From Planctomycetota bacterium (GTDB lineage: Bacteria; Planctomycetota; J058), in contig JAHBXY010000010.1 in assembly GCA_019636275.1 (NCBI GenBank), forward strand, positions 7,785 through 71,784: DNA of 64,000 bases, read 5' to 3'. A program made the translations under genes and the position numbers. Below the pieces are notes generated by a model. The model searched no databases. It saw only the letters and a program-made list of their open reading frames with translations, and was not told where the DNA came from. Below, in pieces: positions 13,009-63,921 of this stretch (positions within the stretch are counted from its first letter, which is position 1; each line of letters starts with the position of its first letter).

Positions 13009-13137
13009 GGCGGGAGTCTCCCCGGCGGTCCGGACGTGGTCAAGACGACACCGCGGACCGCGGAGATGTTCTCGGTGAGATCCGTTTGGACGCGGCGCCG
13101 CGGTTCACTACACTCGGCGCGCGAGGGCAGGCTGACC

Positions 13138-13497
13138 TTGAACGCTCCCGTGCTGGTCGTCGACGACCACGAGGACTTCCGCTGCCTGCTGGCCGCCTGG
13201 ATCGGCGACGAGCTGCGCCTGCCGGTGCGCCTCGCCTGCGACGGGCTCGACGCGCAGCGGTTCTTCACCGACCCGGGGCAGCCCGCGCCGGCGGTCGTGC
13301 TCCTCGACCTCGAGATGCCCGGCCTCGACGGGCGCGGCCTGTTCGCCTGGCTGCGCCAGCACGCGCGGCCCATGCCCCGCGTGTTCCTCGTCTCGGCCTC
13401 GACGAGCCTCGCGCGCGTGGCGGCCGAGCTCGAGGTCGACGGCTACCTTCCCAAGCCCGTGACGCTCCCCGGGCTGCGCCGCGCGCTCGGCGTGTGA
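13138..13497 (+). CDS. Single-domain response regulator
   Basis: VLVVDD, VLLDLEMPGLDG, VSAS, LPKP conserved. Confidence 0.88.
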   Translation: MNAPVLVVDDHEDFRCLLAAWIGDELRLPVRLACDGLDAQRFFTDPGQPAPAVVLLDLEMPGLDGRGLFAWLRQHARPMPRVFLVSASTSLARVAAELEVDGYLPKPVTLPGLRRALGV

Positions 13498-13560: not shown

Positions 13561-13959
13561 CCGGGTGCGCAGGACTTCGACGTCACCTGGTGGGATGGGT
13601 TCCTCGCGGCCCGTCCCGCGCCAGCCCTCGGGCGCTTCCGGGCGATCCTGAGTGAGCTCCTGTGCGCCCTCTCGGCGCCGCCCTCAACCGACAAGGACCG
13701 GCGCGCGCGCGAGGTCGACGACCTCGATCGGTCTTACGACCCGACCGGCGGTCAGTGGCGCGTGGGACGGTTCGTCATGTTCGCGGCGATCCTGGCACGC
13801 CACGGTGTCCTGAGGCCAGGCGACCTCGACGCGGTGGCCGAGCACGCGGTCACGCTCGCAGGGGAGGCCTGGGCAACGGCGACCCCGGAGCATTGGGCTT
13901 CCGCCGTGGCAGCCGCGCGACGTCGCGTCGAGGACGAGTTCGTCGCGGACGGGAGGTGA
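13561..13959 (+). pseudogene. Probable 5'-truncated hypothetical gene at the islet edge
   Basis: Open frame QDFDVTWWDGFLAARP...EDEFVADGR extends to the att site with no upstream start codon. Confidence 0.4.
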
Positions 13960-14024
13960 ACTCGCTTTGTGGGGTTGCGCCACCTGAGAGCAAAAGGAAC
14001 CCTGGGCACCAACCGGAGGACCCC

Positions 14025-14486
14025 ATGCGCAACGTTGCCGTCGCCTCGCTCCTGGCCGCTCTCGCGCTTGCCCAGTCGGGCTGTTTCGCCCTCTACCGCG
14101 GGACGAAGCAGCACGTCCACGTCACTTCCGACCCGCCTGGGGCCGTCGTGAACTTCAACGGGGTGACCGCCACGACGCCTTGCATGCTTCCCGTGTGGCG
14201 TAGCAGCAAGCCGCGCATGCTGCGCGTCGAGGCCGGCGACCGAGAGTCGCTGCAGGTCGAGGTCACGTCGACGCCGTTCGAGAGCCGAGACTCGTTCGGC
14301 GCCTACATGCTCCTGGTCGTCGACGTGTTCTTCGTGATCCCCGCGCTCATTGACCTGGCGTTCCCCGACGCGTTCTACGACTGGCCGAAGGAGATGCATG
14401 TCACGCTCGCGCCTGCGGGCCGCGTGGGGACTACGGCGTGGTTCGTGCGAGATCGCGCGAGGGAGCCTGGGATCTATCGAGACTGA
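14025..14486 (+). CDS. PEGA-like domain lipoprotein
   Basis: GGAGG SD, lipobox AQSGC, VHVTSDPPGAVVNFNG...TTPC, hydrophobic C-terminal segment. Confidence 0.75.
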   Translation: MRNVAVASLLAALALAQSGCFALYRGTKQHVHVTSDPPGAVVNFNGVTATTPCMLPVWRSSKPRMLRVEAGDRESLQVEVTSTPFESRDSFGAYMLLVVDVFFVIPALIDLAFPDAFYDWPKEMHVTLAPAGRVGTTAWFVRDRAREPGIYRD

Positions 14487-14679
14487 GGCTGCGGCCGCGG
14501 CGCCTTCCGACCTCCGCCGGCGCCGCCCGTCCGCCACCCCGGCAGCGCGCCGCCGACGGCCTCGAGATCTTCGACGGCAAGCCAGCGCCAGCGCGGGACG
14601 CGATCTCGCCCACTCGCGGCCGAAGCCGAGCGGGAAGAGGTTGACGAGACGCTTGGCCGATGTCTGATTGAGACAGGGC

Positions 14680-14708
14680 TTGCGCATTGGGCTAAAGCCA
14701 CTTAGGCT
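14680..14708 (+). promoter_or_regulatory. Candidate sigma70 promoter of the antitoxin-Fic operon
   Basis: TTGCGC-N17-TAGGCT; small palindrome GGCT-AA-AGCC in the spacer; GGAGGT SD at 14741. Confidence 0.5.
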
Positions 14709-14757
14709 GTTTGTCCGACATTAGAGTTAGTTTCCGCTCGGGAGGTGGCGAGTAAGC

Positions 14758-15633
14758 GTGGCAAACGCTGACGTTGCGTCGATCCTGCTGGAGCCGGAGC
14801 ACTCCCTTGAGACCCTCGCCACTCGCGAGGCCAGTCTCAGGGTCGAGTACATCAGAGTCCAGATCCCTCGTCGAGCGACGCCCGCTCGTGGGATCTCCAA
14901 GGTGGTCTGGGCCCAGATCCTCAACGAGACAACTCGCGTAATCGAGCTGACTCTCGCGGTCGCCGGCTTTGCTGAGGCCGCCAAGGAACTCGGGCAGCGA
15001 GCCGCAGAGGGCGCCGCCTCGAACGTCGAGGCGGTCAGGCGCCTTGCGACCACCATCATTGGACAGGACCCGTTCGATATCTTGGCCAGGAACCCCGACT
15101 TTGTGAGGGCGGCCGCCGCTGCTTCTGCGTCGCAGCGCACGTCGATCACGGATTGGGAGTCTGCGTTCGATGCGCTGATTCATGCAGCGCGGGCGCTCGT
15201 GTCCGCAGTGCCCATCGAGACGTTGTTGTCCGTGGGGCACTTGGTGGGCGATCCTGAATTGGCTCATCGCTGCCGCATGGCGCATGGCGCACTGAAGGCA
15301 TTTCTTCGCCGATGCGATCCCTCAGTGAAGGCCTCTACGCGCGCGGCAGGGCGCGCGTACGCTCAGGGTAGGATCACCGCCACGGAAGTGGCCCTACTGC
15401 TTGACCTGACGCCATCAGATGCCGTTGCGCTACTTGAAGAGCAGGGCTTCCACCGTCCGATCGGTGTCATTGAACTGACGGACGCTGATCGAGCGGAGCG
15501 GCTAGCGAAGATCAGAGAGGATCGATTTGCGCGTCGCGGCGCTCCCGCTTCCTCCAGCGATCTAATCGATCGAGACGTTGTCGCGAGCCAGCGTATCGAG
15601 GGGGTCGACGCAAGGCAGTGGACCTTCCGCTGA
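14758..15633 (+). CDS. Putative multi-domain Fic antitoxin (helical N-terminal domain, HTH-like segment, C-terminal VbhA-like inhibitory motif)
   Basis: C-terminal VVASQRIEGVD fits (S/T)xxxE(G/N); overlaps the Fic start; AYAQGRITATEVALLLDL is HTH-like. Confidence 0.75.
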   Translation: MANADVASILLEPEHSLETLATREASLRVEYIRVQIPRRATPARGISKVVWAQILNETTRVIELTLAVAGFAEAAKELGQRAAEGAASNVEAVRRLATTIIGQDPFDILARNPDFVRAAAAASASQRTSITDWESAFDALIHAARALVSAVPIETLLSVGHLVGDPELAHRCRMAHGALKAFLRRCDPSVKASTRAAGRAYAQGRITATEVALLLDLTPSDAVALLEEQGFHRPIGVIELTDADRAERLAKIREDRFARRGAPASSSDLIDRDVVASQRIEGVDARQWTFR

Positions 15634-16241
15634 TCCTCGGACAACCCGCAGGGCCAGATCCGCTTCGGTGCTACACACCCGCGGAGGAACTGGCATTAAC
15701 AACCAACCTGCAGGCAATCGCCGGCGCCATTCACCGTGGCGAGTACGTCGGACTGCGGCATGACCTCGATCTTCTTTGCTCGATCCACGAGCGGCTGTTC
15801 GGAAGCGTCAGAGACCACGCTGGCCGAATCCGAAGGAGGGGGTACGGAAGCGAAAGGCTGACGTTCGGCCCGCACCGCTCGTTCCATCGGGACGAAGTCG
15901 AGGCGGGTCTCGACAGAGTCTTCACCTCGCTCGACCGGTCGATTCGTTCGCTCGATGCCAACCCGGACGCGCCCGAGTACGAGACAAGCGCCATCCACCT
16001 CGCGGCTTGGACCCACGCCGAAGTGATACGGGTGCACCCGTTCGAGGACGGCAACGGACGTTCCTCAAGAGCGCTCATGAACTCCATTCTTGTTCGCCAA
16101 GGCCTCCGGCCTGTTGCAGTCGAGGCTACGAAGGAGGAGTACATCGGCGTCCTGAATCACTTCATCAAGACGAGCGACATCCTTCCCCTTCGCGATCTGT
16201 ACATTCGCCTCATGGCCGAGCAGATTCCGAACGGCAACTGA
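15618..16241 (+). CDS. Fic family AMP-transferase (toxin)
   Basis: Canonical HPFEDGNGRSSR at 16035-16070; IHERLFG..HAGRIR; no internal inhibitory motif seen. Confidence 0.93.
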   Translation: MDLPLILGQPAGPDPLRCYTPAEELALTTNLQAIAGAIHRGEYVGLRHDLDLLCSIHERLFGSVRDHAGRIRRRGYGSERLTFGPHRSFHRDEVEAGLDRVFTSLDRSIRSLDANPDAPEYETSAIHLAAWTHAEVIRVHPFEDGNGRSSRALMNSILVRQGLRPVAVEATKEEYIGVLNHFIKTSDILPLRDLYIRLMAEQIPNGN

Positions 16242-16458
16242 GCCGCGCAACGCGTCCTTCAAGCGCGCGGCGACGGCCAGCGCCTTGAGCAGCGCGTAGG
16301 CGGAGCCTCGCGGCCAGGTCGAGGTCGCCCCCGGATGCGGGTGTAGACGGTAGGTCATGACGGCGCGGGCCGCCGCAAATCGTTGTGGTCGGTCTCTCCG
16401 CCGAGCAGACCGTGCCCGTCCTGACCGCGACATCAAGCCGGCGAACGTGCTCGGCGCG

Positions 16459-16716
16459 CTAGGCATCCGGCCGAGGCGCGCGCCCGTCCGGCTCCCCGAA
16501 GAACCAGCCCACGCTGCGCCCGGTCGCTGCGGCGAGCGCGGCGAGCACGTAGGGCTGGGCCGCCGTCCGCCCGCTCTCGACCTCGCGCACCCAGGGCTGG
16601 GTGCGCCCGAGCGCCCGGCCGAGCTCCTCCTGGGTGAGCCCGAGCTCGAGGCGCGCCGCCTTCACCCGATCGCCCAGCGTCCGGTGTAGGGCTGCCTGCT
16701 GCTCGGTGGAGAGCAC
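16459..16716 (-). CDS. XRE family HTH regulator
   Basis: LGDRVKAARLELGLTQEELGRALGRTQPWVREVESG; start uncertain (16716 or 16815). Confidence 0.85.
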   Translation of the reverse strand: MLSTEQQAALHRTLGDRVKAARLELGLTQEELGRALGRTQPWVREVESGRTAAQPYVLAALAAATGRSVGWFFGEPDGRAPRPDA

Positions 16717-16749
16717 GCACCGGGCGAGGACGCCCTCGGATCGACCTGG

Positions 16750-17126
16750 CTGTGTCGTCGACGGCGCGCGACCTTTCGCGGCCCTGCCCCGCGGGGGGCC
16801 GCTGGTGTTCGGCACCGACGCGAAAGCCGCGTCCCGCCGCTGGCTCCGCGCCCCTGCAGGTGCTCGACCGTCCCTGGACGTGGCGAACCTGCGGCAGACG
16901 ACCGCGAGCTACCTGGCGTGCGCGCCGTCGATCTTCGGCGCCGCGTCGATCGTCCGCTAGTCGCGGCAGTTGGGCCACGGGATCGAGATCGCGATGCGGC
17001 AACTACGTGGGCACGCTGCGCGCGATCCCGCGGGACGCGACGGTGCTGGAGGGACGCGATGGAGCGGCCGAGGCCTTCCGTGCGGTGGTCGCCCGGCAGG
17101 GCGCCCGGGAGACGGTGGCATGCTGA
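16750..17126 (+). pseudogene. C-terminal remnant of a tyrosine recombinase/integrase
   Basis: VANLRQTTASYLACAPSIFGAASIVR*SRQLGHGIEIAMR/NYVG: box II (LRxT.AS.L), LGH and catalytic Tyr; TAG at 16958 and a 1-nt frameshift at ~17000. Confidence 0.75.
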
Positions 17127-17839: not shown

Positions 17840-17912
17840 TGGGCCCGCCGGGATTCGAACCCGGAACCAAGAGATTATGAGTCTCGCGCTCTGACCGTTG
17901 AGCTACGGGCCC
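17840..17912 (-). tRNA. tRNA with CAT anticodon, most likely tRNA-Ile2
   Basis: GGGCCCGTAGCTCAACGGTCAGAGCGCGAGACTCATAATCTCTTGGTTCCGGGTTCGAATCCCGGCGGGCCCA; G1:C72, A73, resembles ileX-type tRNAs. Confidence 0.93.
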
Positions 17913-17927: not shown

Positions 17928-19895
17928 CTATACCCGTGGCCGGGCGATCGGGCTCGCCGGCCCGGGCTCTCCCTGGGCCTCCTTGCCCTGGTCCAGGGCG
18001 GCCCGCACGGCGGTCGCGAGGTGGTCGGGCGTGAAGGGCTTCTCCAGCACCGTGGCCCACGGCTCGACGTCGGCGCGGGCCACGAGGTCGCCCGAGTAGC
18101 CGGACATGAACAGCACGCGCACGCCGGGCTCGAGCGCCGCGATCCGCTCGGCGAGGTCGCGGCCGTTGACCCCGGGCATGACCACGTCCGACAGGAGCAG
18201 GTCGATCCGCCCGCGCCGTTGGGCGGCGAGCTCGACCGCCTCATCGCCGCGGCTGGCCTCGAGGACGTCGTAGCCGCGCGCGCTCAGGACCTCGCGCACG
18301 AGCTGGCGCACGGCCTCCTCGTCCTCGACGACGAGGATCGTCTCCCGCCCGCCGGGGGTGGGCGTCGTGGCCGGGCGCTGGCCGCCTTCGACGACCTCGG
18401 CCTCGACGGCCGGGAACGTGAGCTCGAACGTCGTGCCCGCGCCGGGCGCGCTGCGCACCTGCACGTCGCCGCCGCTCTGCTTCACGATCCCGTAGACCGT
18501 GGACAGCCCGAGCCCCGTCCCGCGGCCGACCGCCTTCGTGGTGAAGAAGGGCTCGAACACGCGCTCGAGCACCTCCGGGGGCATCCCCTCGCCCGTGTCG
18601 GTCACGACCAGGGCCACGCGCGGCGCCTCACCGGCCGGCGCGCGCGTGGCGATCGTCAGCCGCCCGCCGCGCGGCATGGCGTCGCGCGCGTTGACCGCCA
18701 GGTTCAGGACCACCTGCTCGAGCTGCGCGCGGTCGGCCCGCACCCGGCCGAGCCCCGGCGCCAGGTCGACGACGACCTCGATGTCCTCGCTGATGAGCCG
18801 GCGGAGCATGTCGTTCATGCCCGCGACCACCTGCCCCACGTCCAGCACCTCGGGCTGCAGCACCTGCTTCCTGCTGAACGCCAGCAGCTGGTGCGTCAGC
18901 GCCGCCGCGCGCTGCCCCGCCTGCCGGATGGCCTCGACGGCGCGCCGCTGCGCCCCCGGCGCGACCTGCTCGGCGAGCAGCTCGCTGTAGCCGATGATCG
19001 CCGTGAGCAGGTTGTTGAAGTCGTGCGCCACCCCGCCGGCGAGCTGGCCGATCGCCTCCATCTTCTGCGCCTGCCGCAGCTCCTCCTCCCGCCGGACCCG
19101 GCCGGTCTGGTCCATGAGCGTGCCCACCGCGCGCACCGGCCGGCCCGCCGCGTCGCGCACCAGGTAGGCCCGGTCGAGCACGTGCGCCCAGGTCCCGTCG
19201 GCCCGGCGCAGGCGGTACTCCTCGTTCCACGTGGCCGTCTGGCCGCCGGCCAGCCCGCGGAAGCTCGTCGTGACCCGCTCGCGGTCGTCCTGATGCACGC
19301 GCTCCGCCCACCACGCCGCGCCGGCCGGGATCTCGTCGAGCCCGTAGCCGAACACGCGCCGGAACGCCTCGCTCACGCGCGTGACGCCCGTCGTGAGGTC
19401 GATGACCCAGCTCGTGTCGCTCGAGGCCTGGGCCACGTGGCGCAGGTGCTCCTCGGAGGCCCGCTGCAGGTCCTCGCCCTGGCGGGTCAGCCGCGCGCGC
19501 TCGGCCCGCTCGGCGGCGTGGCGCAAGGACGTCACGAGGTGCTCGGGGGTCAGCCGGTGCTTGACCAGGTAGTCGACCGCCCCGGACTTCATCGCCTGGA
19601 CGGCCACCTGTTCGTCGCCGCGCCCGGTGAGCACGATGATCGGGGCCGTGACCCCGTGAGCGCCGCAGGCCTCGATCAGCTCGAGGCCCGTGCGCCCGCC
19701 GAGGCGGTGGTCGAACACGAGCACGTCGAACCCGCCGCCGGTCGCCCGGGCCAGCCCCTCCTCGAAGGTCGTGACCTGCGTCATGTCGGTCGCCGGAGCG
19801 CCCGGGGCCAGCTCCAGAAGAGCCTGCAAGGTGAACGCCGCGTCCGGGTCGTCGTCGACGACGAGCAGCCGCAACGCCCCCGGATTCCCCTCCAT
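17928..19895 (-). CDS. Hybrid sensor histidine kinase REC-PAS-HisKA-HATPase-REC (CckA-like)
   Basis: AGGVAHDFNNLL, NLAVNARDAM, FFTTK..GTGLGL, receiver domains at both ends. Confidence 0.95.
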   Translation of the reverse strand: MEGNPGALRLLVVDDDPDAAFTLQALLELAPGAPATDMTQVTTFEEGLARATGGGFDVLVFDHRLGGRTGLELIEACGAHGVTAPIIVLTGRGDEQVAVQAMKSGAVDYLVKHRLTPEHLVTSLRHAAERAERARLTRQGEDLQRASEEHLRHVAQASSDTSWVIDLTTGVTRVSEAFRRVFGYGLDEIPAGAAWWAERVHQDDRERVTTSFRGLAGGQTATWNEEYRLRRADGTWAHVLDRAYLVRDAAGRPVRAVGTLMDQTGRVRREEELRQAQKMEAIGQLAGGVAHDFNNLLTAIIGYSELLAEQVAPGAQRRAVEAIRQAGQRAAALTHQLLAFSRKQVLQPEVLDVGQVVAGMNDMLRRLISEDIEVVVDLAPGLGRVRADRAQLEQVVLNLAVNARDAMPRGGRLTIATRAPAGEAPRVALVVTDTGEGMPPEVLERVFEPFFTTKAVGRGTGLGLSTVYGIVKQSGGDVQVRSAPGAGTTFELTFPAVEAEVVEGGQRPATTPTPGGRETILVVEDEEAVRQLVREVLSARGYDVLEASRGDEAVELAAQRRGRIDLLLSDVVMPGVNGRDLAERIAALEPGVRVLFMSGYSGDLVARADVEPWATVLEKPFTPDHLATAVRAALDQGKEAQGEPGPASPIARPRV

Positions 19896-20046
19896 CCCGA
19901 CCGCCTTCCCGCTGGACCTCCCCTGATTCTAGACCCGGGGAGGCCCCGGGACCCGCGGGAACCTGCGCGAAAGGTTGTGAGCGTCCCGGTAACCCAAATC
20001 CCTTGGGGCCATTGGCGCACGAGCCGCCGCCCGGTCATCGTGGGTC

Positions 20047-23877: not shown

Positions 23878-25716
23878 TCACCCGACGGGCAGCTCGACCG
23901 TGAACCGCGCCCCTTGCCCCGGGGCGCTCTCGAGGTGGATCGTGCCGCCGTGCGCGGCGACGACGTGCTTGACGATCCACAGGCCCAGGCCCAGCCCGCC
24001 GTAGTGGCGCTCCGAGACGGCGCGCTCGAAGCGCTCGAAGATCCGCCCCTGGTCCTCGAGCGCGACGCCGATCCCCTCGTCCTGCACGACCAGCCGGGCC
24101 CGCTCGCCCGCCGCCTCCACGCGCACGGTCACGGGCCGGCCGCGGCCGTACTTCACGGCGTTGTGCACGAGGTTCCACACGAGCTGGTCGAGCTGCCCGG
24201 GGTCCCACCGGCCGACGACCGGCTCGCCGGCGACGACCGTCACGGACGACGAGCTCGCCTGCGCCTCGGCCTCGAGGCGCGCGGCGACCGAGCGTGCCAC
24301 CCCGACGAGGTCGACGTCGCTCGCCTCGATCGTCGGGCCCTCGGCGGCGATGCGCGAGACGTCGAGGAGGCGGTCGACGAGCTCGCCCAACCGCTCGAGC
24401 TGCCGCTGCGCCGTGGCCAGGCGCGGGAGCGCCGTCTCCGAGGCCACGGTCGGGCCGCGGGCGGCGAGCCGGGCCAGGCCCTCGAGGTGCAGCGCCAGCG
24501 GCGTGAGCGGCGTCTTGAGCTCGTGGCTGACGATGCTCAGGAACTCGTCGCGCCGCCGGATCGCCAGCTTCTGGGCGTGGATGTCGGTGAAGGCGCCGAA
24601 CCACGCCAGCGCCGCGCCCTGCGCCCCGGGCAGCGGCTCGGCCGCGGCCAGGAACCAGCGGTGCGCGCCGTCCGACTGCCGCAGGCGCAGCTCGACCTCG
24701 AAGCGCTCGCCCGCGGCGAGCGCCGCGCGCCAGGCCGCGAGGGCCGCCTCGCGGTCGTCGGGGTGCACCTGCGCCGCCCACGGCCCCGGCTCGTCGCGGC
24801 GCAGTCCGGTGTAGGCCCACCAGCGCTCGTTGTAGAAGACCGGCCGGCCGTCGGCGTCGGCGGTCCACACGAGCGACGGCACCATGTTGGCGAGGTGCTG
24901 GAAGCGCTGCTCGCTCTCGCGGCGCGCCGTCAGGTCGCGCGTGACCTTGGCGAACCCGCGCAGCTCCCCCGACTCCTCGCGCAGGGCCGTGACCACGGCG
25001 TTGGCCCAGAAGCGCCCGCCGTCGCGGCGCACGCGCCAGCCCTCGACCTCATGGCGCCCGGCGGGCCCGGCGGCCAGGCGCAGCTCCTCGTCGGGCAGGC
25101 CGGCGTCGCGCGCCTCGGGCGGGAAGAAGAGCGAGAAGTGGCGCCCGATCACCTCGTCGGGGCGGTAGCCCTTGATCCGCTCGGCGCCCTGGTTCCAGGT
25201 GGCGACGTGCCCGCGCGGGTCGAGGAGGAAGATCGCGTACTCCTGCACCGAGTCGACCAGCAGGCGGAACGCGTCGTCGGTCTGCAGGCGCGCCCGGCGC
25301 TCGGCGATCCGGTCGGGCCGGTGGTGCTCCGCCTCGCGCAGCACGGCGCGGATCGCCCCCACGAGCTGGTCGAGCTTCAGCGGCTTGGGGAGGAGGCCGG
25401 CGGCGTGGAAGGCCGCCGCCGCCGAGCGCGCGGCCGCCGGCTCCCGGGCGGTGAGGATCAGCACCGGCGTCTCGCAGAGAGGGGCCGGCTGCTGGCGCAG
25501 CCAGGCGAGGAGGTCCTCGCCCGAGAGGTGCGGGAGCATGAGGTCGAGGAGGATCAGCCGCGGCGGGCCGCTCGCTCTCGCGAGCAGGTCGCGCGCGGCC
25601 TGCCCGTCGCCGACCGCCTCGACCGAGAAGCCCTCCGCGCGGAGGGCCTCGAGGAGCGCGGCGGCCGTGTCCTCGTCGTCCTCGACCACGAGCAGGGCGG
25701 GCGGGGGAGGGGCCAT
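23878..25716 (-). CDS. Sensor histidine kinase REC-PAS-PAS-HisKA-HATPase
   Basis: SHELKTPL, NAVKY, GLGLGL; WNQGAERIKGY PAS. Confidence 0.95.
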   Translation of the reverse strand: MAPPPPALLVVEDDEDTAAALLEALRAEGFSVEAVGDGQAARDLLARASGPPRLILLDLMLPHLSGEDLLAWLRQQPAPLCETPVLILTAREPAAARSAAAAFHAAGLLPKPLKLDQLVGAIRAVLREAEHHRPDRIAERRARLQTDDAFRLLVDSVQEYAIFLLDPRGHVATWNQGAERIKGYRPDEVIGRHFSLFFPPEARDAGLPDEELRLAAGPAGRHEVEGWRVRRDGGRFWANAVVTALREESGELRGFAKVTRDLTARRESEQRFQHLANMVPSLVWTADADGRPVFYNERWWAYTGLRRDEPGPWAAQVHPDDREAALAAWRAALAAGERFEVELRLRQSDGAHRWFLAAAEPLPGAQGAALAWFGAFTDIHAQKLAIRRRDEFLSIVSHELKTPLTPLALHLEGLARLAARGPTVASETALPRLATAQRQLERLGELVDRLLDVSRIAAEGPTIEASDVDLVGVARSVAARLEAEAQASSSSVTVVAGEPVVGRWDPGQLDQLVWNLVHNAVKYGRGRPVTVRVEAAGERARLVVQDEGIGVALEDQGRIFERFERAVSERHYGGLGLGLWIVKHVVAAHGGTIHLESAPGQGARFTVELPVG

Positions 25717-25750: not shown

Positions 25751-27052
25751 TCAGGCGCCCGCGGCCGGGCGGCGCGTGGCGCGGACGTAGCGCACGGTCG
25801 GCGCGTCCGCCGCCAGGTCGACCGGGGGAGGCGCCGGCGCGGTCACGGGCGGCGACACGCCCGCCTCGTCCGCGGCCTGCTCGAGCGCCTCGAGCGCCTC
25901 CGTCGGCGTCGCCGGGCGCCGCGCGGGGTCGAGCGCGGTCAGCCACGCGAGGAGCGCGCGCGCGCCGGCGCCGAGGTGGGGCGGGATCGCCGGCGGGACC
26001 TCGGCCATGGCCTGCAGGAGCGCCATGCCGCGCAGGCCGTCGAACGGGTGGCGACCCGCGAGCGCCTGCAGGGCGACGACGCCGGCGACGTACAGGTCGC
26101 TGCGGGCGTCGGCCTCGGCCCCGGTGATCACCTCCGGGGCCATGAACCCGGGCGTCCCGAGGATGATGTCGGGGGCCGTGAGTCCCTGGTCGAGCGCCGG
26201 CTTGGCCAGGCCGAAGTCGATGACCACCGGCCGCGCGGGGCAGGCGCCCTCGAGGATCACGTTGCGGGGGGTGAGGTCGCGGTGCACGAGGCCGCGGGCG
26301 GCCAGGGCGCCGAGCGCGCGCAGGAGCCCGCGCAGGAGCGCCAGCCCCGCCGCCGGCGCCAGGGGCCCCGTGTCGCGCAGGTGCCGCTCGAGGGTCGGGC
26401 CATGGACGAGGCGCATGGCGCAGTAGGCGCGGCCGCCGACGACGCCCGCGTCGCGCATGGCCACGACGTGCGGGTCGTCGACGCGCGCCAGCACGCGCGA
26501 CTCGCGCACGAAGCGCGCCAGGTCCTCGGGCTCGGCGGCCTCGGGCGCGAGGACCTTCAGGGCCACGGCCTCGCCGCGCAGGGCGTCCCAGGCCTCGTAG
26601 ACGACGCCGAAGCTGCCGCGGCCGAGCGCGCGCCACACGGCGTAGCGGCCGAAGGCCAGCCCCTCGGCGGCGCCGGGGAGGTCGAGGCCGACGGGCTCCT
26701 CGTCGAGGAGGCGCTCGACGAGGCGCGCGAGCGGGTCCGGGTCGAGGGGCCGGAGCGCGTGGGCGGTGGCGCCGACCGCGCGGCCGCGGGCGGCGTCGGC
26801 CGGGTCGGCGGACACGACGACCACCGGGAAGGGGCGCGCGTGGAGGGCGCGGACGCGGGCCACGAGGTCGAGGCCGCCGCCGTCGGGGAGGTCGAGCGCG
26901 ACGACCAGCAGGTCGGGCGCGCGCGGGGCCAGGGCCTGCAGGGCCGCCCGCACCCCGGCGCACTCCTGCACGGCGTGGCCCGCCCGCCCCAGCGTGGTGG
27001 CCACGCGGGCGCGCTCCTGCGGGTCGGCGTCGACGACGACGGCTGTGGCCAC
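25751..27052 (-). CDS. Response-regulator (REC)-Ser/Thr protein kinase fusion
   Basis: N-terminal REC then GRGSFGVVY, VALK, HRDLTPRN, DFG, GTPGFMAPE. Confidence 0.9.
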   Translation of the reverse strand: MATAVVVDADPQERARVATTLGRAGHAVQECAGVRAALQALAPRAPDLLVVALDLPDGGGLDLVARVRALHARPFPVVVVSADPADAARGRAVGATAHALRPLDPDPLARLVERLLDEEPVGLDLPGAAEGLAFGRYAVWRALGRGSFGVVYEAWDALRGEAVALKVLAPEAAEPEDLARFVRESRVLARVDDPHVVAMRDAGVVGGRAYCAMRLVHGPTLERHLRDTGPLAPAAGLALLRGLLRALGALAARGLVHRDLTPRNVILEGACPARPVVIDFGLAKPALDQGLTAPDIILGTPGFMAPEVITGAEADARSDLYVAGVVALQALAGRHPFDGLRGMALLQAMAEVPPAIPPHLGAGARALLAWLTALDPARRPATPTEALEALEQAADEAGVSPPVTAPAPPPVDLAADAPTVRYVRATRRPAAGA

Positions 27053-27271
27053 GTTCCCTCCGGGCGGCGGCGCCGAGCAGATCGGGGGCCGCGACCCCGG
27101 GCTCGCGCGACAACGACTTGCGCGACGACGCCGCGGACTTCCGCGCGGAGGACCAGCCAGGAGTCCTCGCTCGCGCCGGTCCGCGCAGTCGTCCGCGCGC
27201 GCGACCGCCGCGACGCGGCTTGGGCGCGGCGCAGGTCGTGCTCGTCGGCGCCGACGAACAAGGAGGTCGAC

Positions 27272-28004
27272 GTGAGCGCCCCGCGCGCCTCGGCTGAGAA
27301 GACGACGAAGGCCGTGCTCGTGCTTCGCCGGCCGGGCTCGATCGTCGGGCGGCTCGCCCCCGGCGGACGGCTGCTGATCGGCCGCGCGCCCTCGGCCGAC
27401 GTGACGCTCCACGACCCGAGCGTGTCGCGCCTGCACGCCCGGATCACCTGGTCGGAGGGCCGGACGCGCCCCTGGGTCGAGGACCTGCACAGCGCCAACG
27501 GGGTGTGGCTCGACGGGCGGCGGATCGCGCAGGCGGCCGAGCTGCGCGACGGCGTGACCCTGCGCCTGGGCTCCTACGCGCTGCAGGTGGAGCTGGGCGA
27601 GGACGCGCCGCCGGCGCTCCTCGACGAGGGCGGGACCGTCCGCGTGCGGCTGTTCTCGGAGACCGGCCCCGAGCTCCAGGGGCGGCTGCGAGACCCGCAG
27701 GACCTGCGCGAACCTGCTCGTCGACCTCGAGGCGCGCCGGCGCACGGGCACGCTCCTCCTGCCGGGCGGGGGGCAGGTCGTGCTGGCGCGCGGGCGCGTG
27801 GTCCACGCGCGGACGCCGGACGCCGTCGGGTTCGAGGCGCTGAGCGACCTGCTCACCGCGGGCGGGGCCGGAACGTTTCGCTTCGTGCTCGAGCTCGCGC
27901 CGCTCGAGAGCGAGCTCGACGTGTCCCCGCGCGCGCTCCTCGAGAGCGGCCGCGCACCCACCGAGCGACTCGGCCGTGACGCGGGCCGGAGCCGCGCCTC
28001 CTGA
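27272..28004 (+). CDS. FHA domain + DUF4388/PATAN-like domain protein, copy 1 (1-nt insertion at ~27711)
   Basis: IGR..D..VSRLHA..DLHSANG FHA motifs; gcgcgAacctg vs gcgacctg in the paralog. Confidence 0.85.
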
Positions 28005-28122
28005 GCGCGCCGGCGAGTCGCGAGGGTGACACGCGCGCCGAGAAGTCCGCGCGCGAGCGGCCGAAGGGTCGGAGATTTCCGCTCTTGTGCCCGGCTCGGG
28101 CGATCCCCTAGGCTTGCGGGCG

Positions 28123-28407
28123 ATGGCGATCGAACGGACCAGCAGCTCCGGCAGCCTGATCGACGTGCTCGACCGCGTCCTCGACAAGGGGATCGTGATC
28201 GACGCCTGGGTGCGGGTGTCGCTCGTCGGGATCGACCTGCTCACGGTCGAGGCGCGCGTCGTCGTGGCCTCGATCGAGACCTACCTCAGGTTCTCCGACG
28301 CGGTCCACCAGGCGACGACGATGGCGCGGCCCGCCGCCGCGTCCCCCGCGCCCGAGGCTGCGGACCGGGGCGCGGCCGCGGCGACGCGGACCGTCCCGAC
28401 CGGCTGA
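28123..28407 (+). CDS. gvpA: Gas vesicle structural protein GvpA family, copy 1
   Basis: [45 protein letters not shown]. Confidence 0.95.
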
Positions 28408-28584
28408 CCCGAGCGAGCCTCCTCCCGAGCGCGAGGAGCCACGGGCCGTCTGCCCGCACGCGATCACGAGCCGCCGTCGTCAGGATGGGCGCCGGACGCG
28501 GAGGAGTTCGCGCCCCGACGACCAGCGCGTCACTTGGGCTCGGCCCGCGATTGGCTCCCTGACGATCGCCTCGAGGAGGGCCCC

Positions 28585-28776
28585 GTGGAGCCTCTGAAGA
28601 TCGTCCCCTGCGTCGTCTGCGGCGCACACGTTCGCCGGGTCCGCCCCGTCGGCCTCGTCACCTGCGGCGCCTACTGCCGCACGATCATCTGCCGCCTGCG
28701 GGCCGAGCAGGCCCGACCGGCGGCGGCGGCGCGGCGATCGGCGCAGGGCGCGCGGCAGGGCGCGCGGCAGGGCTGA
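28585..28776 (+). CDS. Small Cys-rich (CxxC...CxxxC) protein
   Basis: GAGGAG SD; CVVCGAHVRRVRPVGLVTCGAYC. Confidence 0.55.
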   Translation: MEPLKIVPCVVCGAHVRRVRPVGLVTCGAYCRTIICRLRAEQARPAAAARRSAQGARQGARQG

Positions 28777-28777
28777 C

Positions 28778-29002
28778 GTGAGCGAGCCGGGTCCGACCCG
28801 CCGCCAGCGCGCGGTCGAGGAGGGGCTCCGCTGGTGTCACCAGCGGGGCGTGCAGATCGAGTGGCTCGACCGCGACCGCGTGCTCTGCCGCGTTCAGTGC
28901 GTCGTCGAGCCCTCGGCGCGGATGATCACGATCATCGCGCCCAGCTTCCTGGACGCCTACATGGAGCTGCGGGCCGAGCTCGAGCGGCAGGGGGCGTCCT
29001 GA
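28778..29002 (+). CDS. Small hypothetical protein
   Basis: Starts 1 nt after the previous stop; coherent codon usage. Confidence 0.55.
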   Translation: MSEPGPTRRQRAVEEGLRWCHQRGVQIEWLDRDRVLCRVQCVVEPSARMITIIAPSFLDAYMELRAELERQGAS

Positions 29003-29281
29003 CGGTCGGTCGGCGATCGGGAACGCGCCGGGCGTGCAGGGCGCGCAGCCGGGCCACGAGGCCCGAGCCCGCGCCGTCCCGGAGGTCCAGCGCGACCGCC
29101 CCGGGCGACCGCTCAGCGCGACCGCCCAGCGCGACCCCGAGGAAGTCGGAGCGCGCGGGGCGGCGGCGGCGAGGGCCGCGCGCGCCCGCGCACTCCTGGG
29201 AGGCGTGGCCGCGCGGCTCAGGGCCGCGCTGATCCGCGCGCGCTCCTGCGAGTCTGCGCCGACGACGAGGACGACGGCCAC
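29003..29281 (-). pseudogene. Decayed copy of the REC domain of the kinase at 25751-27052
   Basis: VAVVLVVGADSQERARIS vs VATAVVVDADPQERARVA; DNA cactcctg..ggcgtggcc shared; frameshifts, kinase domain missing. Confidence 0.75.
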
Positions 29282-29384
29282 GGTCCTTCGCCCGGCGCGG
29301 CGCCGAGCAGAGAGGGCTCCACGGCCCGTGGCCTCTGGGTCACGGGTCGTGGACCCCGCCGCGAACTCCTGCACGGAGCACCGA

Positions 29385-29551
29385 CTGACCGCGCTCACCG
29401 GTTGATCTGAGAGCGAAGCGAGCAGATCGACCGGTGGCCCAGCGTAGGCCGCGAAGCGGCCGGAGCGAGGGCGACAGGTGCGTCACTGCGGATCGGAGCA
29501 TCGGCCCGCGCTCCTCGACGTGGGCATCACGACGAGCGACGGCCGCTGTGA
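29385..29551 (+). repeat. Interspersed structured repeat family 2, copy 1
   Basis: ctgaccgcgctcacc...gagagcgaagcgagcagatcg...ggccgcgaagcggccggagcgagggcgacaggtgc...gcgacggccgctgtga. Confidence 0.85.
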
Positions 29552-29673
29552 AGTCCTCGCCCCCACCCGATGGGTGGATCGTCCGCGCAGCCGTCCGCGC
29601 TCGACGCGGCCGCGCCAGGAGATGCGCGCGGACCGGAGAGTGCAGCGGCGCCGCGCCACGAAAGGAGTCGCCG

Positions 29674-30390
29674 TTGAGCGCTTCGCGCGTTGCCTCGCTG
29701 CCCGCGCTTCGCCTTCGCCGCCGCGGATCGGTCACCGCCCGCCTCGCCCCGGGGGAGCGGCTCCTGATCGGCCGGGCCCCCTCGGCCGACCTGACGCTCG
29801 CCGACCCGAGCGTCTCGCGCCTGCACGCCCGGATCACGTGGCCCGAGGGGCGGCCGCGCCCCGTGGTCGAGGACCTGCACAGCGCCAACGGCGTGTGGCT
29901 CGACGACCGGCGGGTCGCCGGGAAGGCCGAGCTGCGCGACGGCGTGACGTTGCGCCTCGGCACCTACGCGCTGGAGGTGGAGCTGGGCGACGACGCGCCG
30001 CCGGCCCTCCTCGACGACGGCGGCACCGTGCGCGTGCGGCTGTTCTCGGAAGCGGGGCCCGAGCTCTCGGGGCAGCTCCGGGATCCCCAGGACCTCCGCG
30101 ACCTGCTCCTCGACCTCGAGGCGCGTCGCCGCACGGGCACGCTGGCCCTGCCCGGGCGCGGGCAGGTCGTGTTCGCCCGCGGCCGCGTGGTCCACGCGGA
30201 GACCTCCCGGGCCAAGGGCGTCGAGGCCCTGGGCGAGCTCCTCACCTCCGCCGCCACGGGTCCGTTCCGCTTCCAGCTCGACGTGGCCCCCCTCGAGAGC
30301 CGTCTGGACGTGTCGATCCGCGCCGTCCTCGAGCGCGCGATGACGCCGACCGAGCGGCTCGGGCGCGGAGACCGGAGCCGTGCGTCATGA
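29674..30390 (+). CDS. FHA domain + DUF4388/PATAN-like protein, copy 2
   Basis: AAGGAG SD, TTG start; colinear with copy 1, intact. Confidence 0.88.
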   Translation: MSASRVASLPALRLRRRGSVTARLAPGERLLIGRAPSADLTLADPSVSRLHARITWPEGRPRPVVEDLHSANGVWLDDRRVAGKAELRDGVTLRLGTYALEVELGDDAPPALLDDGGTVRVRLFSEAGPELSGQLRDPQDLRDLLLDLEARRRTGTLALPGRGQVVFARGRVVHAETSRAKGVEALGELLTSAATGPFRFQLDVAPLESRLDVSIRAVLERAMTPTERLGRGDRSRAS

Positions 30391-30499
30391 CGCGCACGAC
30401 GGTTCGAGCGGGTGACACCCGCGGGGACGTCTCCGCGGGGACCGTGCGGGCATTTCCGCTCTTGCGCTCGTCTCGAGCGATCCCCCAGGCTTCCTGATC

Positions 30500-30784
30500 A
30501 TGGCCATCGAGCGGACACACGGCTCCGGCAGCCTGATCGACGTCCTCGACCGCGTCCTCGACAAGGGCATCGTGATCGACGCGTGGGTGCGCGTGTCGCT
30601 CGTCGGGATCGACCTGCTCACGGTCGAGGCGCGGGTGGTCGTCGCCTTGATCGAGACCTACCTCAGGTTCTCCGACGCGGTCAACCAGGCGACGACGATC
30701 GCCCGGCCGGCGCCGACCGACGAGCCGGCCCTGGGGACCACGGGGCGGGCGCCCAGGTCGCCGGGGCGGCTGGCGCCCGTCTGA
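30500..30784 (+). CDS. gvpA: GvpA family protein, copy 2
   Basis: Same core as copy 1; VVALIETY instead of VVASIETY. Confidence 0.95.
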
Positions 30785-30965
30785 CCGCGCTCACCGCTCG
30801 ATCCGAGAGCGAAGCGAGCAGATCGAGCCGTGGCGCGCATCCCCGAGCGAAGGCCGCGAAGCGGCCGGAGCGAGGGCGACAGGTGCCTCACTGCGGATGG
30901 GAGCGGATCGGAGCAAGGGTCCCGCTCCATGACGTGGACGTCAACACAAGCGACGGCCGCTGTGA
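30781..30965 (+). repeat. Interspersed structured repeat family 2, copy 2
   Basis: Same motifs as 29385-29551; begins at the gvpA stop codon. Confidence 0.85.
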
Positions 30966-31081
30966 GCGCGACGCGCGGAACGCCCTGTGCGTACCGGGTG
31001 GGGTCTCGCCGGGAACGCGCGACTTACGGCGCGCAGTTTCTCTCGGCGCGAGGTCCTCCGCGGGAGAATGGGGCGGCGGCG

Positions 31082-31270
31082 GTGTCGAGCGGGCTCCGGT
31101 GCGTGGTCTGCCGGGTGGTCTCCGCGCGGCGGGTGGTGATCGAGCCCTCCCGGCTGCCGGTCCGCCTGTGCAGCCGCGCCTGCGAGGACGTCTACCGGGA
31201 GCGCCTGAGGGAGGCGCTGCGCGACCCCTCCGACGCCACGGCCGCCGACGACACCCCGCTGGGTCAGTAG
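31082..31270 (+). CDS. Small Cys-rich (CxxC...CSxxC) protein
   Basis: CVVCRVVSARRVVIEPSRLPVRLCSRAC; positional counterpart of 28585-28776. Confidence 0.5.
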   Translation: MSSGLRCVVCRVVSARRVVIEPSRLPVRLCSRACEDVYRERLREALRDPSDATAADDTPLGQ

Positions 31271-36778: not shown

Positions 36779-37926
36779 CGGCCGCCTCCCTGCCGCGGGG
36801 CGGCGGGCGGGGCGCCGCTGGAGACGGAGCGCACCGACGCCGGGGTGGCCTCACGCTCGGCCGACCGCTCGGCGCGCAGGGCCGCGCCGGCGGCGACACC
36901 CACACCGAGCGCCACGGCGAGCGGCGCCAGGATGCCGAGCGGCGACGACGGGCGCCCGCGGGCGCGCGCGCTGGCCCAGGCGCCGGCGGAGCCGGCGCGG
37001 CGGCGGGCGCGCCGGGCGCGGCGGACGCCCGAGGCGTGCGGGCCGTCGGCCCGGGGGTCCGCGTCGACGCCGCCGGCCCCGTCGACGACGACCTCGCCCA
37101 CGCGGGCCTGCGCGTCCTCGAGGAGCGCCAGGGCGTCTCTGGCCGTCGCCGGCCGCTCGTCGCGCGCGCGGGCCATGAGCCGCCGCACGGCGGCCACGGT
37201 GGCCGGCGAGGCGGCGGCGTGGCCCTCGAGCCCGGGCGGGTCCTCCTGGACGATCCGCTCCATGGTCAGGACGGCGTTCTCGCCGCGGCCGTAGGGCATA
37301 TCGCCCGTCACCATGGTGAAGAGCACGGCGCCGAGCGCCCACAGGTCGCTGCGGATGTCGAGGTCGCCCGCGCCGCGGCACTGTTCGGGCGAGAGGAAGG
37401 CCACGGTGCCGACGGTCACGCCCTCGGCCGTGATCGAGCCGTCGCCCTGGGCCTTGGCCAGGCCCAGGTCGGCCAGCTTCACCGCGCCGTCGTGGCCGAG
37501 GAGGATGTTCTCCGGCTTCACGTCGCGGTGCACGAGGCCGTGCTCCTCGGCGGCCGCGAGGGCGCGCGCGACCTCGATCGCCACGTCGAGCGCCTCGTCC
37601 TCGGGCAAGGCGCCGCGCCGGGCGAGGCACTCGCTCAGGTCCTCGCCCTCGACGAGCTCCATGGCGAACCAGTAGGTCCCCTCGTGCTCGCCCGCCTCAT
37701 AGGCGCGCACGACGTTGCCGTGGCTCAGGCGCGCGGCGGCGCGGGCCTCGCGCAGGAAGCGCTCGCGGTAGTCGGGGTCGCGGGCCACGCCGCGGTGGAG
37801 CACCTTGAGCGCCACCTGCCGCTGCAGGGCGGTCTGGACGGCGCGGTACACGGTGGCCATGGCGCCCGTGCCGAGCACGTCCAGCACCTCGAACCCCGGC
37901 ACCTTCACCCGGCGCGTCTTCTTCAC
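36775..37926 (-). CDS. Ser/Thr protein kinase with C-terminal TM helix
   Basis: GTGAMATVY, VALK, HRDVKPEN, DLG, GTVAFLSPEQ. Confidence 0.92.
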   Translation of the reverse strand: MKKTRRVKVPGFEVLDVLGTGAMATVYRAVQTALQRQVALKVLHRGVARDPDYRERFLREARAAARLSHGNVVRAYEAGEHEGTYWFAMELVEGEDLSECLARRGALPEDEALDVAIEVARALAAAEEHGLVHRDVKPENILLGHDGAVKLADLGLAKAQGDGSITAEGVTVGTVAFLSPEQCRGAGDLDIRSDLWALGAVLFTMVTGDMPYGRGENAVLTMERIVQEDPPGLEGHAAASPATVAAVRRLMARARDERPATARDALALLEDAQARVGEVVVDGAGGVDADPRADGPHASGVRRARRARRRAGSAGAWASARARGRPSSPLGILAPLAVALGVGVAAGAALRAERSAEREATPASVRSVSSGAPPAAPRQGGGR

Positions 37927-49111: not shown

Positions 49112-50152
49112 GTGATGTCCCTTCGCTCTCGCCTCGTCTCCGGCTCGGCCGCCTTGCTCGCGGTCGGAGCCCTGTCCTTCGGCTGCACCGACACCAAGCG
49201 ACGAACCACCTTCGTCGACGACCCCGAGCGCGGCCGGATCGACGTGTGGGTCACCGACGCGCCGCCCCAGCTCGACCGGCTGCGGCAGGTCAACGTGTTC
49301 TTCGAGCGCGTCGACGCCATCGGCGTCGTCGACACCGGGACGGCGGCCACGCCGATCAACGTCCCCGTGCTGCTCACCCCCGACGACGCCCCGATCCAGG
49401 TCGACCTCTTGCCCCTGCGCGCCGGCCAGCGCCAGTTCCTGGGCTCGGGCGCGGTACCCCGCGGCACCTACCAGAGGTTCAGGGTGTACTTCTCCGATGT
49501 CGAGGTCCTCTACGAGACGACGTTCGGCGAGGAGACCTACTCGATCGCCAACGGCCGCCTCACCGTCGACGGCGCCACGCAGCAGGGCGACCTGTACGCC
49601 TTCGACATCGACGCGCCCGTCGACGCGGCCGGCCAGGGCATCGTGGTCGAGCCAGGCGTGAACGTGCCGGTCCTCATCGACATGGACCTGTTCGAGTCGC
49701 TCGACGCCGTGGGCGACGTGACCGCGCCGACGGCCATGACCTTCACCCCGACGGCGCGCATGCGCCGCCTCGACGGCCCGACGGGCACCGGGTCGATCGC
49801 CGGGCAGGTGCGCGGCGACCGCGGGACCCCCGACCAGGTCGACGACGTGCCGGTCGCGGACGCCATCGTCCAGCTCCGCCAGCCGCTCGACGACGAGACG
49901 ATCGTGGCGAGCACCAAGACCGACGCCCAGGGCATCTACGTGATCGAGGGCCTCGCCCCGGGCGCCTACACGCTGCTCGTCACGAAGGAAGGCGTCGAGC
50001 CGAGCGAGACCGTGGTCAACGTGAACGAGGGTCAGCGGACGACCCAGGACGTCCTGCTCACGGAGGGCCCGGTCGAGCCGACGGACCCCACCGACCCCAC
50101 CGACCCCACCGACCCGAACAACAACAACAACAACAACGGCGCGACCCAGTAG
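49112..50152 (+). CDS. DUF4382 + carboxypeptidase-regulatory-like domain lipoprotein, paralog 1
   Basis: Lipobox SFGC; VWVTDAP, VDLLPL, PRGTY; C-terminal (PTD)x4 and N7 tail. Confidence 0.8.
   Translation: MMSLRSRLVSGSAALLAVGALSFGCTDTKRRTTFVDDPERGRIDVWVTDAPPQLDRLRQVNVFFERVDAIGVVDTGTAATPINVPVLLTPDDAPIQVDLLPLRAGQRQFLGSGAVPRGTYQRFRVYFSDVEVLYETTFGEETYSIANGRLTVDGATQQGDLYAFDIDAPVDAAGQGIVVEPGVNVPVLIDMDLFESLDAVGDVTAPTAMTFTPTARMRRLDGPTGTGSIAGQVRGDRGTPDQVDDVPVADAIVQLRQPLDDETIVASTKTDAQGIYVIEGLAPGAYTLLVTKEGVEPSETVVNVNEGQRTTQDVLLTEGPVEPTDPTDPTDPTDPNNNNNNNGATQ
50078..50137 (+). repeat. In-frame tandem repeats (9-nt x4 and AAC x7)
   Basis: ccgacggaccccaccgaccccaccgaccccaccgacccg followed by (aac)7. Confidence 0.9.

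Positions 50153-61874: not shown

Positions 61875-61878
<4 letters not shown>
59418..61878 (+). CDS. Ser/Thr kinase-TM-extracellular domain-LysM (frameshifts at ~59740, ~60337, ~60660)
   Basis: Kinase motifs across two frames, TM segment, then Pro-rich linker into the frame carrying LysM HVVAAGEMLGKIA..NGLDDPNLIQVGAALELP. Confidence 0.7.

Positions 61879-63921
<2,043 letters not shown>

Follow-up and report, generated by a model that had tools for sequence, protein, structure and literature searches.

A locus in which signalling genes adjoin genes for the gas-vesicle shell protein GvpA lies at positions 25751 to 31270 of a 64-kb stretch of contig JAHBXY010000010.1, from an uncultured bacterium labelled Planctomycetota. 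This whole stretch, with a GC content of ~76%, is referred to below as the window, and its reading frames were set by third-position GC content (GC3) and then checked with Pfam. On the reverse strand, a gene encoding a receiver (REC) domain joined to a Hanks-type Ser/Thr kinase (25751..27052) is separated by a divergent intergenic region (27053..27271) from a forward-strand gene whose product combines an FHA domain with a PATAN (DUF4388) domain, and this gene is followed by gvpA1 (28123..28407, + strand, 94 aa). An FHA-PATAN gene and a gvpA gene, gvpA2 (30500..30784, + strand, 94 aa), occur again further downstream. All the domain assignments of the initial annotation (REC-kinase, FHA-DUF4388 and GvpA) are upheld by Pfam. 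The kinase belongs to a rare subfamily whose receiver is most likely degenerate, and gvpA lies close to the kinase gene at every locus of this subfamily that was examined.

The kinase is a soluble protein of 433 aa that matches the Pfam families Pkinase (1.1e-35) and Response_reg (4.5e-11), and its translation keeps the catalytic motifs of a Hanks-type kinase intact (VALK, HRDLTPRN, DFG and GTPGFMAPE). Its family is rare, with about 21 full-length REC-Ser/Thr kinase homologues in 5.8e9 proteins. Alignment with Escherichia coli CheY reveals that, the gvpA-linked subfamily has A, G or R in place of the phospho-accepting D57, a residue that is deleted in the protein P0153, that A, P or S stands for D13 and R for K109 in every member, and that the receiver has suffered a 2-aa deletion. 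Among the residues on which phospho-acceptance depends (D12/D13, D57, T/S87 and K109), S87 is the sole CheY-type residue that these receivers retain. Distant homologues without gvpA linkage (L177 and P0161-P0168) retain all the CheY residues that the linked subfamily has lost. The REC domain of the gvpA-linked kinases is, from its sequence, most likely a pseudo-receiver, and phosphotransfer to it from a histidine kinase is unlikely because the acceptor Asp, D13 and K109 are missing. The same losses render unlikely the relay from a two-component system to Ser/Thr phosphorylation that the initial annotation had proposed. An anti-phage defence system was also considered and rejected, since the PADLOC models PD-T4-6 and Mad6 match only the generic kinase domain and leave the other proteins of the module unmatched.

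The same kinase family is found within 1.3 kb of gvpA in all five pseudo-receiver kinase loci examined, that is, in the window and in the loci L005, L007, L009 and L176, so that the linkage suggested by the initial annotation is borne out by neighbourhood comparison. L005 is syntenic with the window and presents, in order, a histidine kinase, the kinase, FHA-PATAN and gvpA. In L007, gvpA and a single-domain REC gene are followed on the opposite strand by a Cys-rich open reading frame (ORF), an FHA gene and the kinase gene, and then by FHA-PATAN; in L009 and its counterpart L010, the kinase and FHA-PATAN genes are accompanied by a degenerate GvpA gene and a REC gene; and in L176, a canonical gvpA is directly divergent from the kinase gene, with FHA-PATAN absent. 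Gene orders and flanking genes thus differ between the linked loci, and the kinase-gvpA pairing persists through these rearrangements at ~60% protein identity. This repetition of the pairing amid unrelated flanks argues for a functional coupling of the kinase subfamily with gvpA. The single relative with a canonical REC domain that was examined, L177, has no gvpA, and none was found in 160 distant FHA loci (0/160). Short motifs of the intergenic region that separates the kinase gene from FHA-PATAN, such as GAGCAnnTnnGGGGCCGCG, are conserved by alignment in L005, L007 and L009. The carriers of the cassette, uncultured bacteria of very high GC content, form a small group; close homologues bear the NCBI label Planctomycetota, while GvpA is nearest to that of the myxobacterium Sandaracinus. 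The single-domain receivers of L007 and L009 were compared with the response regulator of the Sandaracinus gvp cluster, and they were rejected as its orthologues because they share only generic REC similarity with it.

In the window, the kinase gene is followed, 35 bp downstream and on the same strand, by a hybrid histidine kinase gene with the architecture REC-PAS-PAS-HisKA-HATPase (23878..25716, - strand; Pfam and synteny with L005), an arrangement otherwise seen only in L005. The sequence of the histidine kinase's own REC domain, read directly, carries the canonical DD, D, T and K residues.

FHA domains read phosphothreonine (pThr), and PATAN is a protein-interaction domain. In the FHA-PATAN family, the pThr-binding residues G33/R34, S48/H51 and N72/G73 (the GR, SxxH and NG motifs) are invariant in 13 homologues. 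The intact gene of the window, copy 2 (29674..30390, + strand, 238 aa), matches the Pfam FHA family at 1.1e-16, and the best Foldseek matches of its AlphaFold2 model are FHA domains with TM-target values of 0.78-0.84, those of Chlamydia CT664 (3gqs) and Rv1747 FHA-1 (3po8/3poa, 6ccd) ranking at the top. The C-terminal α/β domain is confidently modelled as well. Its assignment to DUF4388/PatA_N (PF14332) is marginal, with 27.9 bits in copy 2 against a gathering cut-off of 25 and weak or absent matches in several homologues. Translation of copy 1 would start at a GTG codon after the Shine-Dalgarno sequence AAGGAGG, and that of copy 2 at a TTG codon after AAAGGAG. The family is rare, with 17 full-length homologues in 5.8e9 proteins; a profile scan of the GTDB species representatives found no close relatives (best 38% identity), and one of the JGI metagenomes found a single poor contig of 2.1 kb (L097). 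It was also observed that the L005 orthologue has seven consecutive Thr residues right before the FHA domain (L005 5816-5900) and that copy 1 of the window (27272-27330) reads 'EKTTK' in the matching region. This Thr cluster recalls the autoinhibitory N-terminal pThr site of GarA and OdhI, and it is not conserved across the family.

Both GvpA proteins of the window contain the Gas_vesicle domain (PF00741, E about 1e-16) and exceed the 100-bit cut-off of the NCBIfam GvpA model NF006874, GvpA1 with 111.4 bits and GvpA2 with 106.9 bits. They are colinear with solved shell proteins, over residues 1-71 with that of Anabaena (8GBS) and over residues 1-62 with that of Bacillus megaterium (7R1C), and GvpA1, GvpA2 and their counterparts in L005, L007 and L176 share about 70% identity with Anabaena GvpA across 71 residues. 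The ratio of non-synonymous to synonymous substitution rates (dN/dS) between the gvpA1 and gvpA2 cores is 0.15. By these features GvpA1 and GvpA2 are canonical major shell proteins, and the formation of vesicles by them is a prediction. GvpA homologues number thousands, and the nearest named one, from Sandaracinus amylolyticus, belongs to a complete gvp cluster with pairs of histidine kinases and response regulators. Each GvpA of the window ends in a Pro/Ala/Thr-rich tail of ~25 aa, which in GvpA2 contains GTTGRAPR. Among the best 120 GvpA matches, the corresponding T-x-x-R-A-P motif is found only in GvpA2 and in the proteins of L007 and L176, all of them linked to the module, and it may be taken as a lead only. 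As a separate observation, codon 50 of gvpA2 (30647-30649) encodes Leu where a Ser is present, within the conserved VVVAS(I/V) segment, in GvpA1, in its close orthologue P0004 and in the GvpAs of solved structure; this S50L change is possibly a mildly deleterious one, specific to this copy.

The GvpA-like gene of L009 (10785-11003) and L010 (896-1090) keeps the N-terminal helix and carries polar and Pro substitutions, in frame, in the β-hairpin. Its sequence is identical in the NCBI metagenome-assembled genome and in independent read assemblies, which indicates a real variant, and the gene is either decaying or repurposed.

Alignment of the upstream regions uncovered a promoter-like element before gvpA1 (28080..28122, + strand) and, with the same motif, before gvpA2 (30457..30499, + strand). 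Ahead of gvpA1 it consists of CGCTCTTG, a spacer of 17-18 nt, TCCCCTAGGCT and 8 nt that lead to the ATG, without a Shine-Dalgarno sequence. Each of the six gvpA genes linked to the module is preceded by CGCTCTTG-N17/18-TCCnCTAsGyT ending 8-9 nt before the ATG, likewise without a Shine-Dalgarno sequence; the four remaining elements are located at L005 6647, L007 9957, L009 10741 and L176 9809 (- strand). The 8-mer of the element has a background frequency of 0.03 per kb, and it is absent upstream of cluster-type gvpA genes. A sigma-70 scan of the region predicted no promoter. The element is probably, to judge from its conservation, a dedicated gvpA promoter, and the mRNA is probably leaderless because the element ends 8-9 nt before the ATG and no Shine-Dalgarno sequence intervenes. 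If gvpA thus has its own promoter, it does not need to be co-transcribed with the FHA gene.

The second set of genes stems from a tandem duplication. The DNA at 26825-28339 recurs at 29018-30715 with an identity of 71-89%, and the duplicated unit takes in the first ~75 REC codons, the divergent intergenic region, FHA-PATAN and gvpA as far as about codon 73, leaving the GvpA tails and both Cys-rich ORFs outside. The second REC sequence (~29018..29382, - strand), recognised by its DNA match to the first block and by frame analysis, is composed of homologous pieces in at least two frames, with an insertion and several frameshifts, and lacks a kinase domain. Copy 1 of FHA-PATAN (27272..28004, + strand; Pfam FHA 8.8e-19) has a single extra A at ~27710/27711 with respect to copy 2 and to the L005 orthologue, which places its FHA and PATAN parts in different frames. 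The codons after this frameshift show purifying selection (dN/dS 0.25 against L005); therefore, the lesion is very recent or an assembly error, and copy 1 is either a recent pseudogene or the product of such an error. It is the orthologue of the L005 gene, with a synonymous divergence (dS) of 0.22, and copy 2, whose dS is about 0.45-0.5, either dates further back or has diverged more. In sum, a piece of ~1.5 kb, comprising the REC N-terminus, FHA-PATAN and the gvpA core, was duplicated in tandem and its copies decayed reciprocally, so that the kinase and the adaptor each remain as a single intact copy in the window, alongside the two gvpA genes. The initial annotation had described two colinear blocks, each with a REC gene and a Cys-rich ORF. 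The duplication is real at the DNA level, but the blocks are not two working modules, the REC gene of the second one being a pseudogene remnant spread over at least two frames; and of the two Cys-rich ORFs, both external to the duplicated DNA, one is a real gene whereas the other resembles it only at the level of motifs.

The real gene is Cys2 (31082..31270, + strand, 62 aa, GC3 0.97-1.0), which encodes a zinc-ribbon-like protein with a CxxC-x18-CxxxC pattern and has a 62-aa orthologue, P0268, with 74% identity. An exhaustive phmmer search retrieved this single orthologue, the remaining matches being repetitive giants. Relatives of Cys2 adjoin the gene FHA188 in L007 and directly precede FHA-PATAN in L014 and L015. 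On these comparative grounds Cys2 is a real small protein and a genuine recurrent partner of the module. The zinc-ribbon ORF was not found in the available L005, L009 and L176 sequence, and the L005 contig, which ends 72 nt after gvpA, is uninformative in this respect. Cys1 (28534..28776, + strand; CxxC-x14-CxxxC; GC3 0.8-0.9) is probably a divergent or decaying relative of Cys2, and its start codon is uncertain. Between the two blocks lies a 74-aa ORF (28778..29002, + strand, GC3 0.97) that is called in the source annotation, forms a cluster of one and yielded no homologues or families. Neither Cys1, Cys2 nor the 74-aa ORF has a match in Pfam, NCBIfam or PADLOC.

Sequence comparison also revealed a repeat of ~190 nt, in two copies that are ~90% identical, with no third copy in the window; like the 74-aa ORF, it is absent from the initial annotation. 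Copy A (29381..29555, + strand) sits in the kinase/FHA intergenic region of the second block, where the first block has only ~25 nt, and copy B (30777..30968, + strand) lies between gvpA2 and Cys2. The repeat contains a hairpin with a 14-bp stem, CACCGGTTGATCTG…CAGATCGACCGGTG, with one compensatory pair change between the copies, and the z-scores of its RNA fold are -3.2 and -1.9. Rfam, at gathering and E-value thresholds, returned two tRNAs and two chance-level matches only, leaving the repeat unmatched. It could be a small mobile or REP-like (repetitive extragenic palindromic) element, or else a regulatory RNA or operator.

The current reading, to which about even credence is given, proposes that this locus is a lineage-specific pThr/FHA-PATAN cassette coupled to gvpA, which would control GvpA or gas-vesicle assembly after translation. 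Its core would consist of a soluble Hanks-type kinase with a pseudo-receiver, a divergent FHA-PATAN adaptor and a canonical gvpA with its own promoter, and its variable extras would be the small zinc-ribbon protein and the single-domain receivers. The kinase would autophosphorylate, or phosphorylate Thr residues on the adaptor or on the surface-exposed tails of GvpA; the FHA domain would dock on the resulting pThr; and the PATAN domain would then recruit or block a partner, so that GvpA assembly or gas-vesicle organisation would be gated after translation. For vesicles to be built, accessory gvp genes would have to be present in another part of the genome. Bacterial gene pairs of a Ser/Thr kinase and an FHA protein usually mark kinase-substrate or adaptor relations, as in PknB-FhaA/GarA and PpkA-Fha1. 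Control at the post-translational level is favoured because of this precedent and because no recognisable DNA-binding domain was found in any core protein with Pfam or NCBIfam. In a more specific and rather unlikely version, the kinase phosphorylates a Thr in the C-terminal tail of GvpA (candidate G-T-x-x-R-A-P) and FHA-PATAN docks on the vesicle surface, gating assembly, clustering or positioning.

Several observations weigh against this proposal. The gvpA genes of the window lie neither within nor beside a gvp assembly cluster (gvpF/L, gvpG, gvpJ/M/S, gvpK, gvpN/O): tblastn with the full Sandaracinus Gvp set matched only the two gvpA genes, and Pfam scans of the ~47 genes predicted across the 64 kb revealed no further gvp family, the other genes being housekeeping and signalling genes only. 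The same scans found no PP2C phosphatase. The hydrophobic β-hairpin is lost from the linked GvpA of L009/L010, which reaches 40.4 bits against the cut-off of 100, so that this partner cannot be a shell former. The T-x-x-R-A-P motif is absent from GvpA1 and from the L005 and P0004 proteins, and the FHA-PATAN homologues of L011-L015 and L097 have no gvpA nearby. The link with gvpA need not be an operon, given the promoter of its own, and the five loci inspected for the kinase subfamily are perhaps not fully independent. Finally, the functional readings rest on sequence and gene neighbourhood in uncultured organisms.

Other explanations were considered as well. Regulation could be purely transcriptional, the kinase/FHA-PATAN pathway switching the gvpA promoter, perhaps via the zinc-ribbon protein or an unlinked factor, with GvpA never being phosphorylated or bound. 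The invariant CGCTCTTG box in the fixed element of all linked gvpA genes looks like a dedicated regulatory site, regulators commonly adjoin their target genes, the recurrent CxxC…CxxxC protein could bind nucleic acid, and Sandaracinus-type gvp clusters embed histidine kinase/response regulator pairs directly after gvpA. However, no core protein has a recognised DNA-binding domain, the zinc-ribbon ORF does not appear in the L009 and L176 sequence or in the uninformative L005 contig, and the usual meaning of kinase/FHA pairs points to substrates or adaptors, so that this possibility is regarded as unlikely. An exapted GvpA paralogue, acting with the kinase and the adaptor in a non-vesicle role, for instance as an amphipathic scaffold or membrane-active partner in genomes devoid of assembly genes, would agree with the lack of any other gvp gene in the 64-kb window, the 23-kb L009 contig and the 16-kb L176 contig, with the L009/L010 variant, whose substituted hairpin is identical in independent samples, and with the unusually long GvpA tails and their module-specific motif. 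Nevertheless, practically all core residues of shell GvpA are retained in GvpA1, GvpA2 and their counterparts in L005, L007 and L176, with dN/dS of 0.15, a constraint hard to explain without wall formation, and their closest relatives sit in full gvp clusters; exaptation is thus considered quite unlikely.

It has also to be asked whether the genes are functionally linked at all, as their adjacency could reflect synteny inherited within a small clade, the window simply displaying a decaying tandem duplication. The broken genes in both blocks, the small and closely sampled clade and the degenerate gvpA of L009 would fit such a view, which is nonetheless very unlikely: each lineage has its own flanking genes, yet the kinase-gvpA pairing is maintained through rearrangements at ~60% protein identity, the linked genes are under purifying selection, and the promoter element is conserved in non-coding DNA. 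The least probable explanation, and a highly improbable one, is the phosphorelay of the initial annotation, in which a histidine kinase would signal through the REC domain of the kinase to Ser/Thr phosphorylation, the FHA protein and GvpA. The hybrid histidine kinase 35 bp from the kinase gene in the window and L005 and the single-domain receivers that flank the module in L007 and L009 speak for it, but the acceptor Asp, D13 and K109 are missing in every gvpA-linked receiver, and the adjoining histidine kinase is not conserved in L007, L009 and L176.

Known gas-vesicle regulation is transcriptional or proceeds via cluster-encoded factors such as GvpD/E and GvrA-C. A full-text literature search found no natural link between gas vesicles and a Ser/Thr kinase or FHA protein, in agreement with the impression of the initial annotation that the combination had not been described; the two subjects meet only in an engineered biosensor (PMC13602928). 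The cassette thus joins known parts in a new way. The closest gas-vesicle counterparts are the Sandaracinus-type clusters (L001/L002 of S. amylolyticus, and L008), with the order gvpA-gvpA-HK-RR-gvpF-gvpG-arsA-gvpF-gvpJ-gvpL-gvpK-HK-RR, where HK and RR denote histidine kinase and response regulator. Their GvpAs are 71-79% identical to those of the window, and signalling genes lie directly beside gvpA in them too. Unlike the locus described here, they are full assembly clusters with two-component regulators and do not share the promoter element, whereas the gvpA genes of the window have no accessory gvp genes and are paired with a Hanks-type kinase and FHA-PATAN.

In the threonine-phosphorylation pathway of the type VI secretion system, the kinase PpkA, the FHA protein Fha1/TagH and the phosphatase PppA control assembly post-translationally. 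As in that pathway, genes for a Hanks-type kinase and an FHA adaptor stand beside the structural gene of a large assembly, and the FHA domain of the window weakly matches the TagH model of NCBIfam. In contrast, the adaptor carries PATAN, the kinase is a soluble protein that bears a pseudo-receiver, and a gas-vesicle shell protein would be the target; neither type VI secretion families nor a phosphatase were found in the window, and the resemblance is one of logic only. The adaptor can also be likened to GarA/OdhI and FhaA/FhaB, the adaptors of actinobacterial PknB/PknG, small FHA proteins that serve as kinase substrates and switches and whose structures 3oun, 4qcj and 6i2p are among the closest structural FHA matches, but it differs from them in its PATAN C-terminus, in an N-terminal Thr cluster that the family does not conserve and in unrelated targets. 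With PATAN regulators (PatA and those of the PixG/TaxP1 PATAN-REC type) the common element is the DUF4388/PatA_N domain, although these combine PATAN with a receiver and act on the pilus motor, whereas the PATAN of this cassette is joined to FHA in one protein whose gene is linked to one for buoyancy. A preprint describes PATAN-domain regulators as exerting protein-protein control of the type IV pili motility machine (bioRxiv 10.1101/2021.06.11.447907). The engineered system mentioned above, UReKA (PMC13602928), consists of kinase-responsive gas vesicles in which phosphorylation of a surface protein alters vesicle properties, and an FHA fusion was tried in it. It is a synthetic protein kinase A biosensor based on GvpC, not a natural system, and GvpC is not present in the window.

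Other features of the window complete the picture of this genome. Three more Hanks-type kinase genes are found at 36790-37926 (-), 59737-60342 (+) and 61869-62846 (+), and several further receiver and histidine kinase genes at 13111-13494 and 17973-19925; signalling genes are very abundant in this genome, as is typical of Myxococcota and Planctomycetota. A low-GC islet (13700-17000, ~65% versus 76%) adjoins a tRNA-Met gene (17840-17912) and was probably acquired horizontally. It contains an ORF with a Fic domain (15618-16241, HPFEDGNGR), which overlaps an upstream ORF of 291 aa (14758-15633), and one with an XRE-type helix-turn-helix (16459-16815, -), and it is possibly a Fic toxin-antitoxin-like unit. 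The adjacent paralogues at 49205-50152 and 50366-51271, with DUF4382 and CarboxypepD_reg domains, represent a second local tandem duplication.

Gas vesicles serve as acoustic reporter genes and kinase-responsive versions are being engineered (PMC13602928), so that a natural solution would have practical value; if the tail-phosphorylation switch were true, it would offer a ready-made part for kinase-responsive acoustic reporters and would represent the first case of a kinase controlling a protein-shelled organelle in bacteria. For a rare kinase subfamily with a pseudo-receiver and for an FHA-PATAN adaptor, a candidate target is now at hand. If the carrier genomes turned out to lack accessory gvp genes, a shell protein would have been recruited to a new role. 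The conserved kinase/FHA cassette at gvpA would provide a concrete, testable route to the post-translational control of buoyancy.

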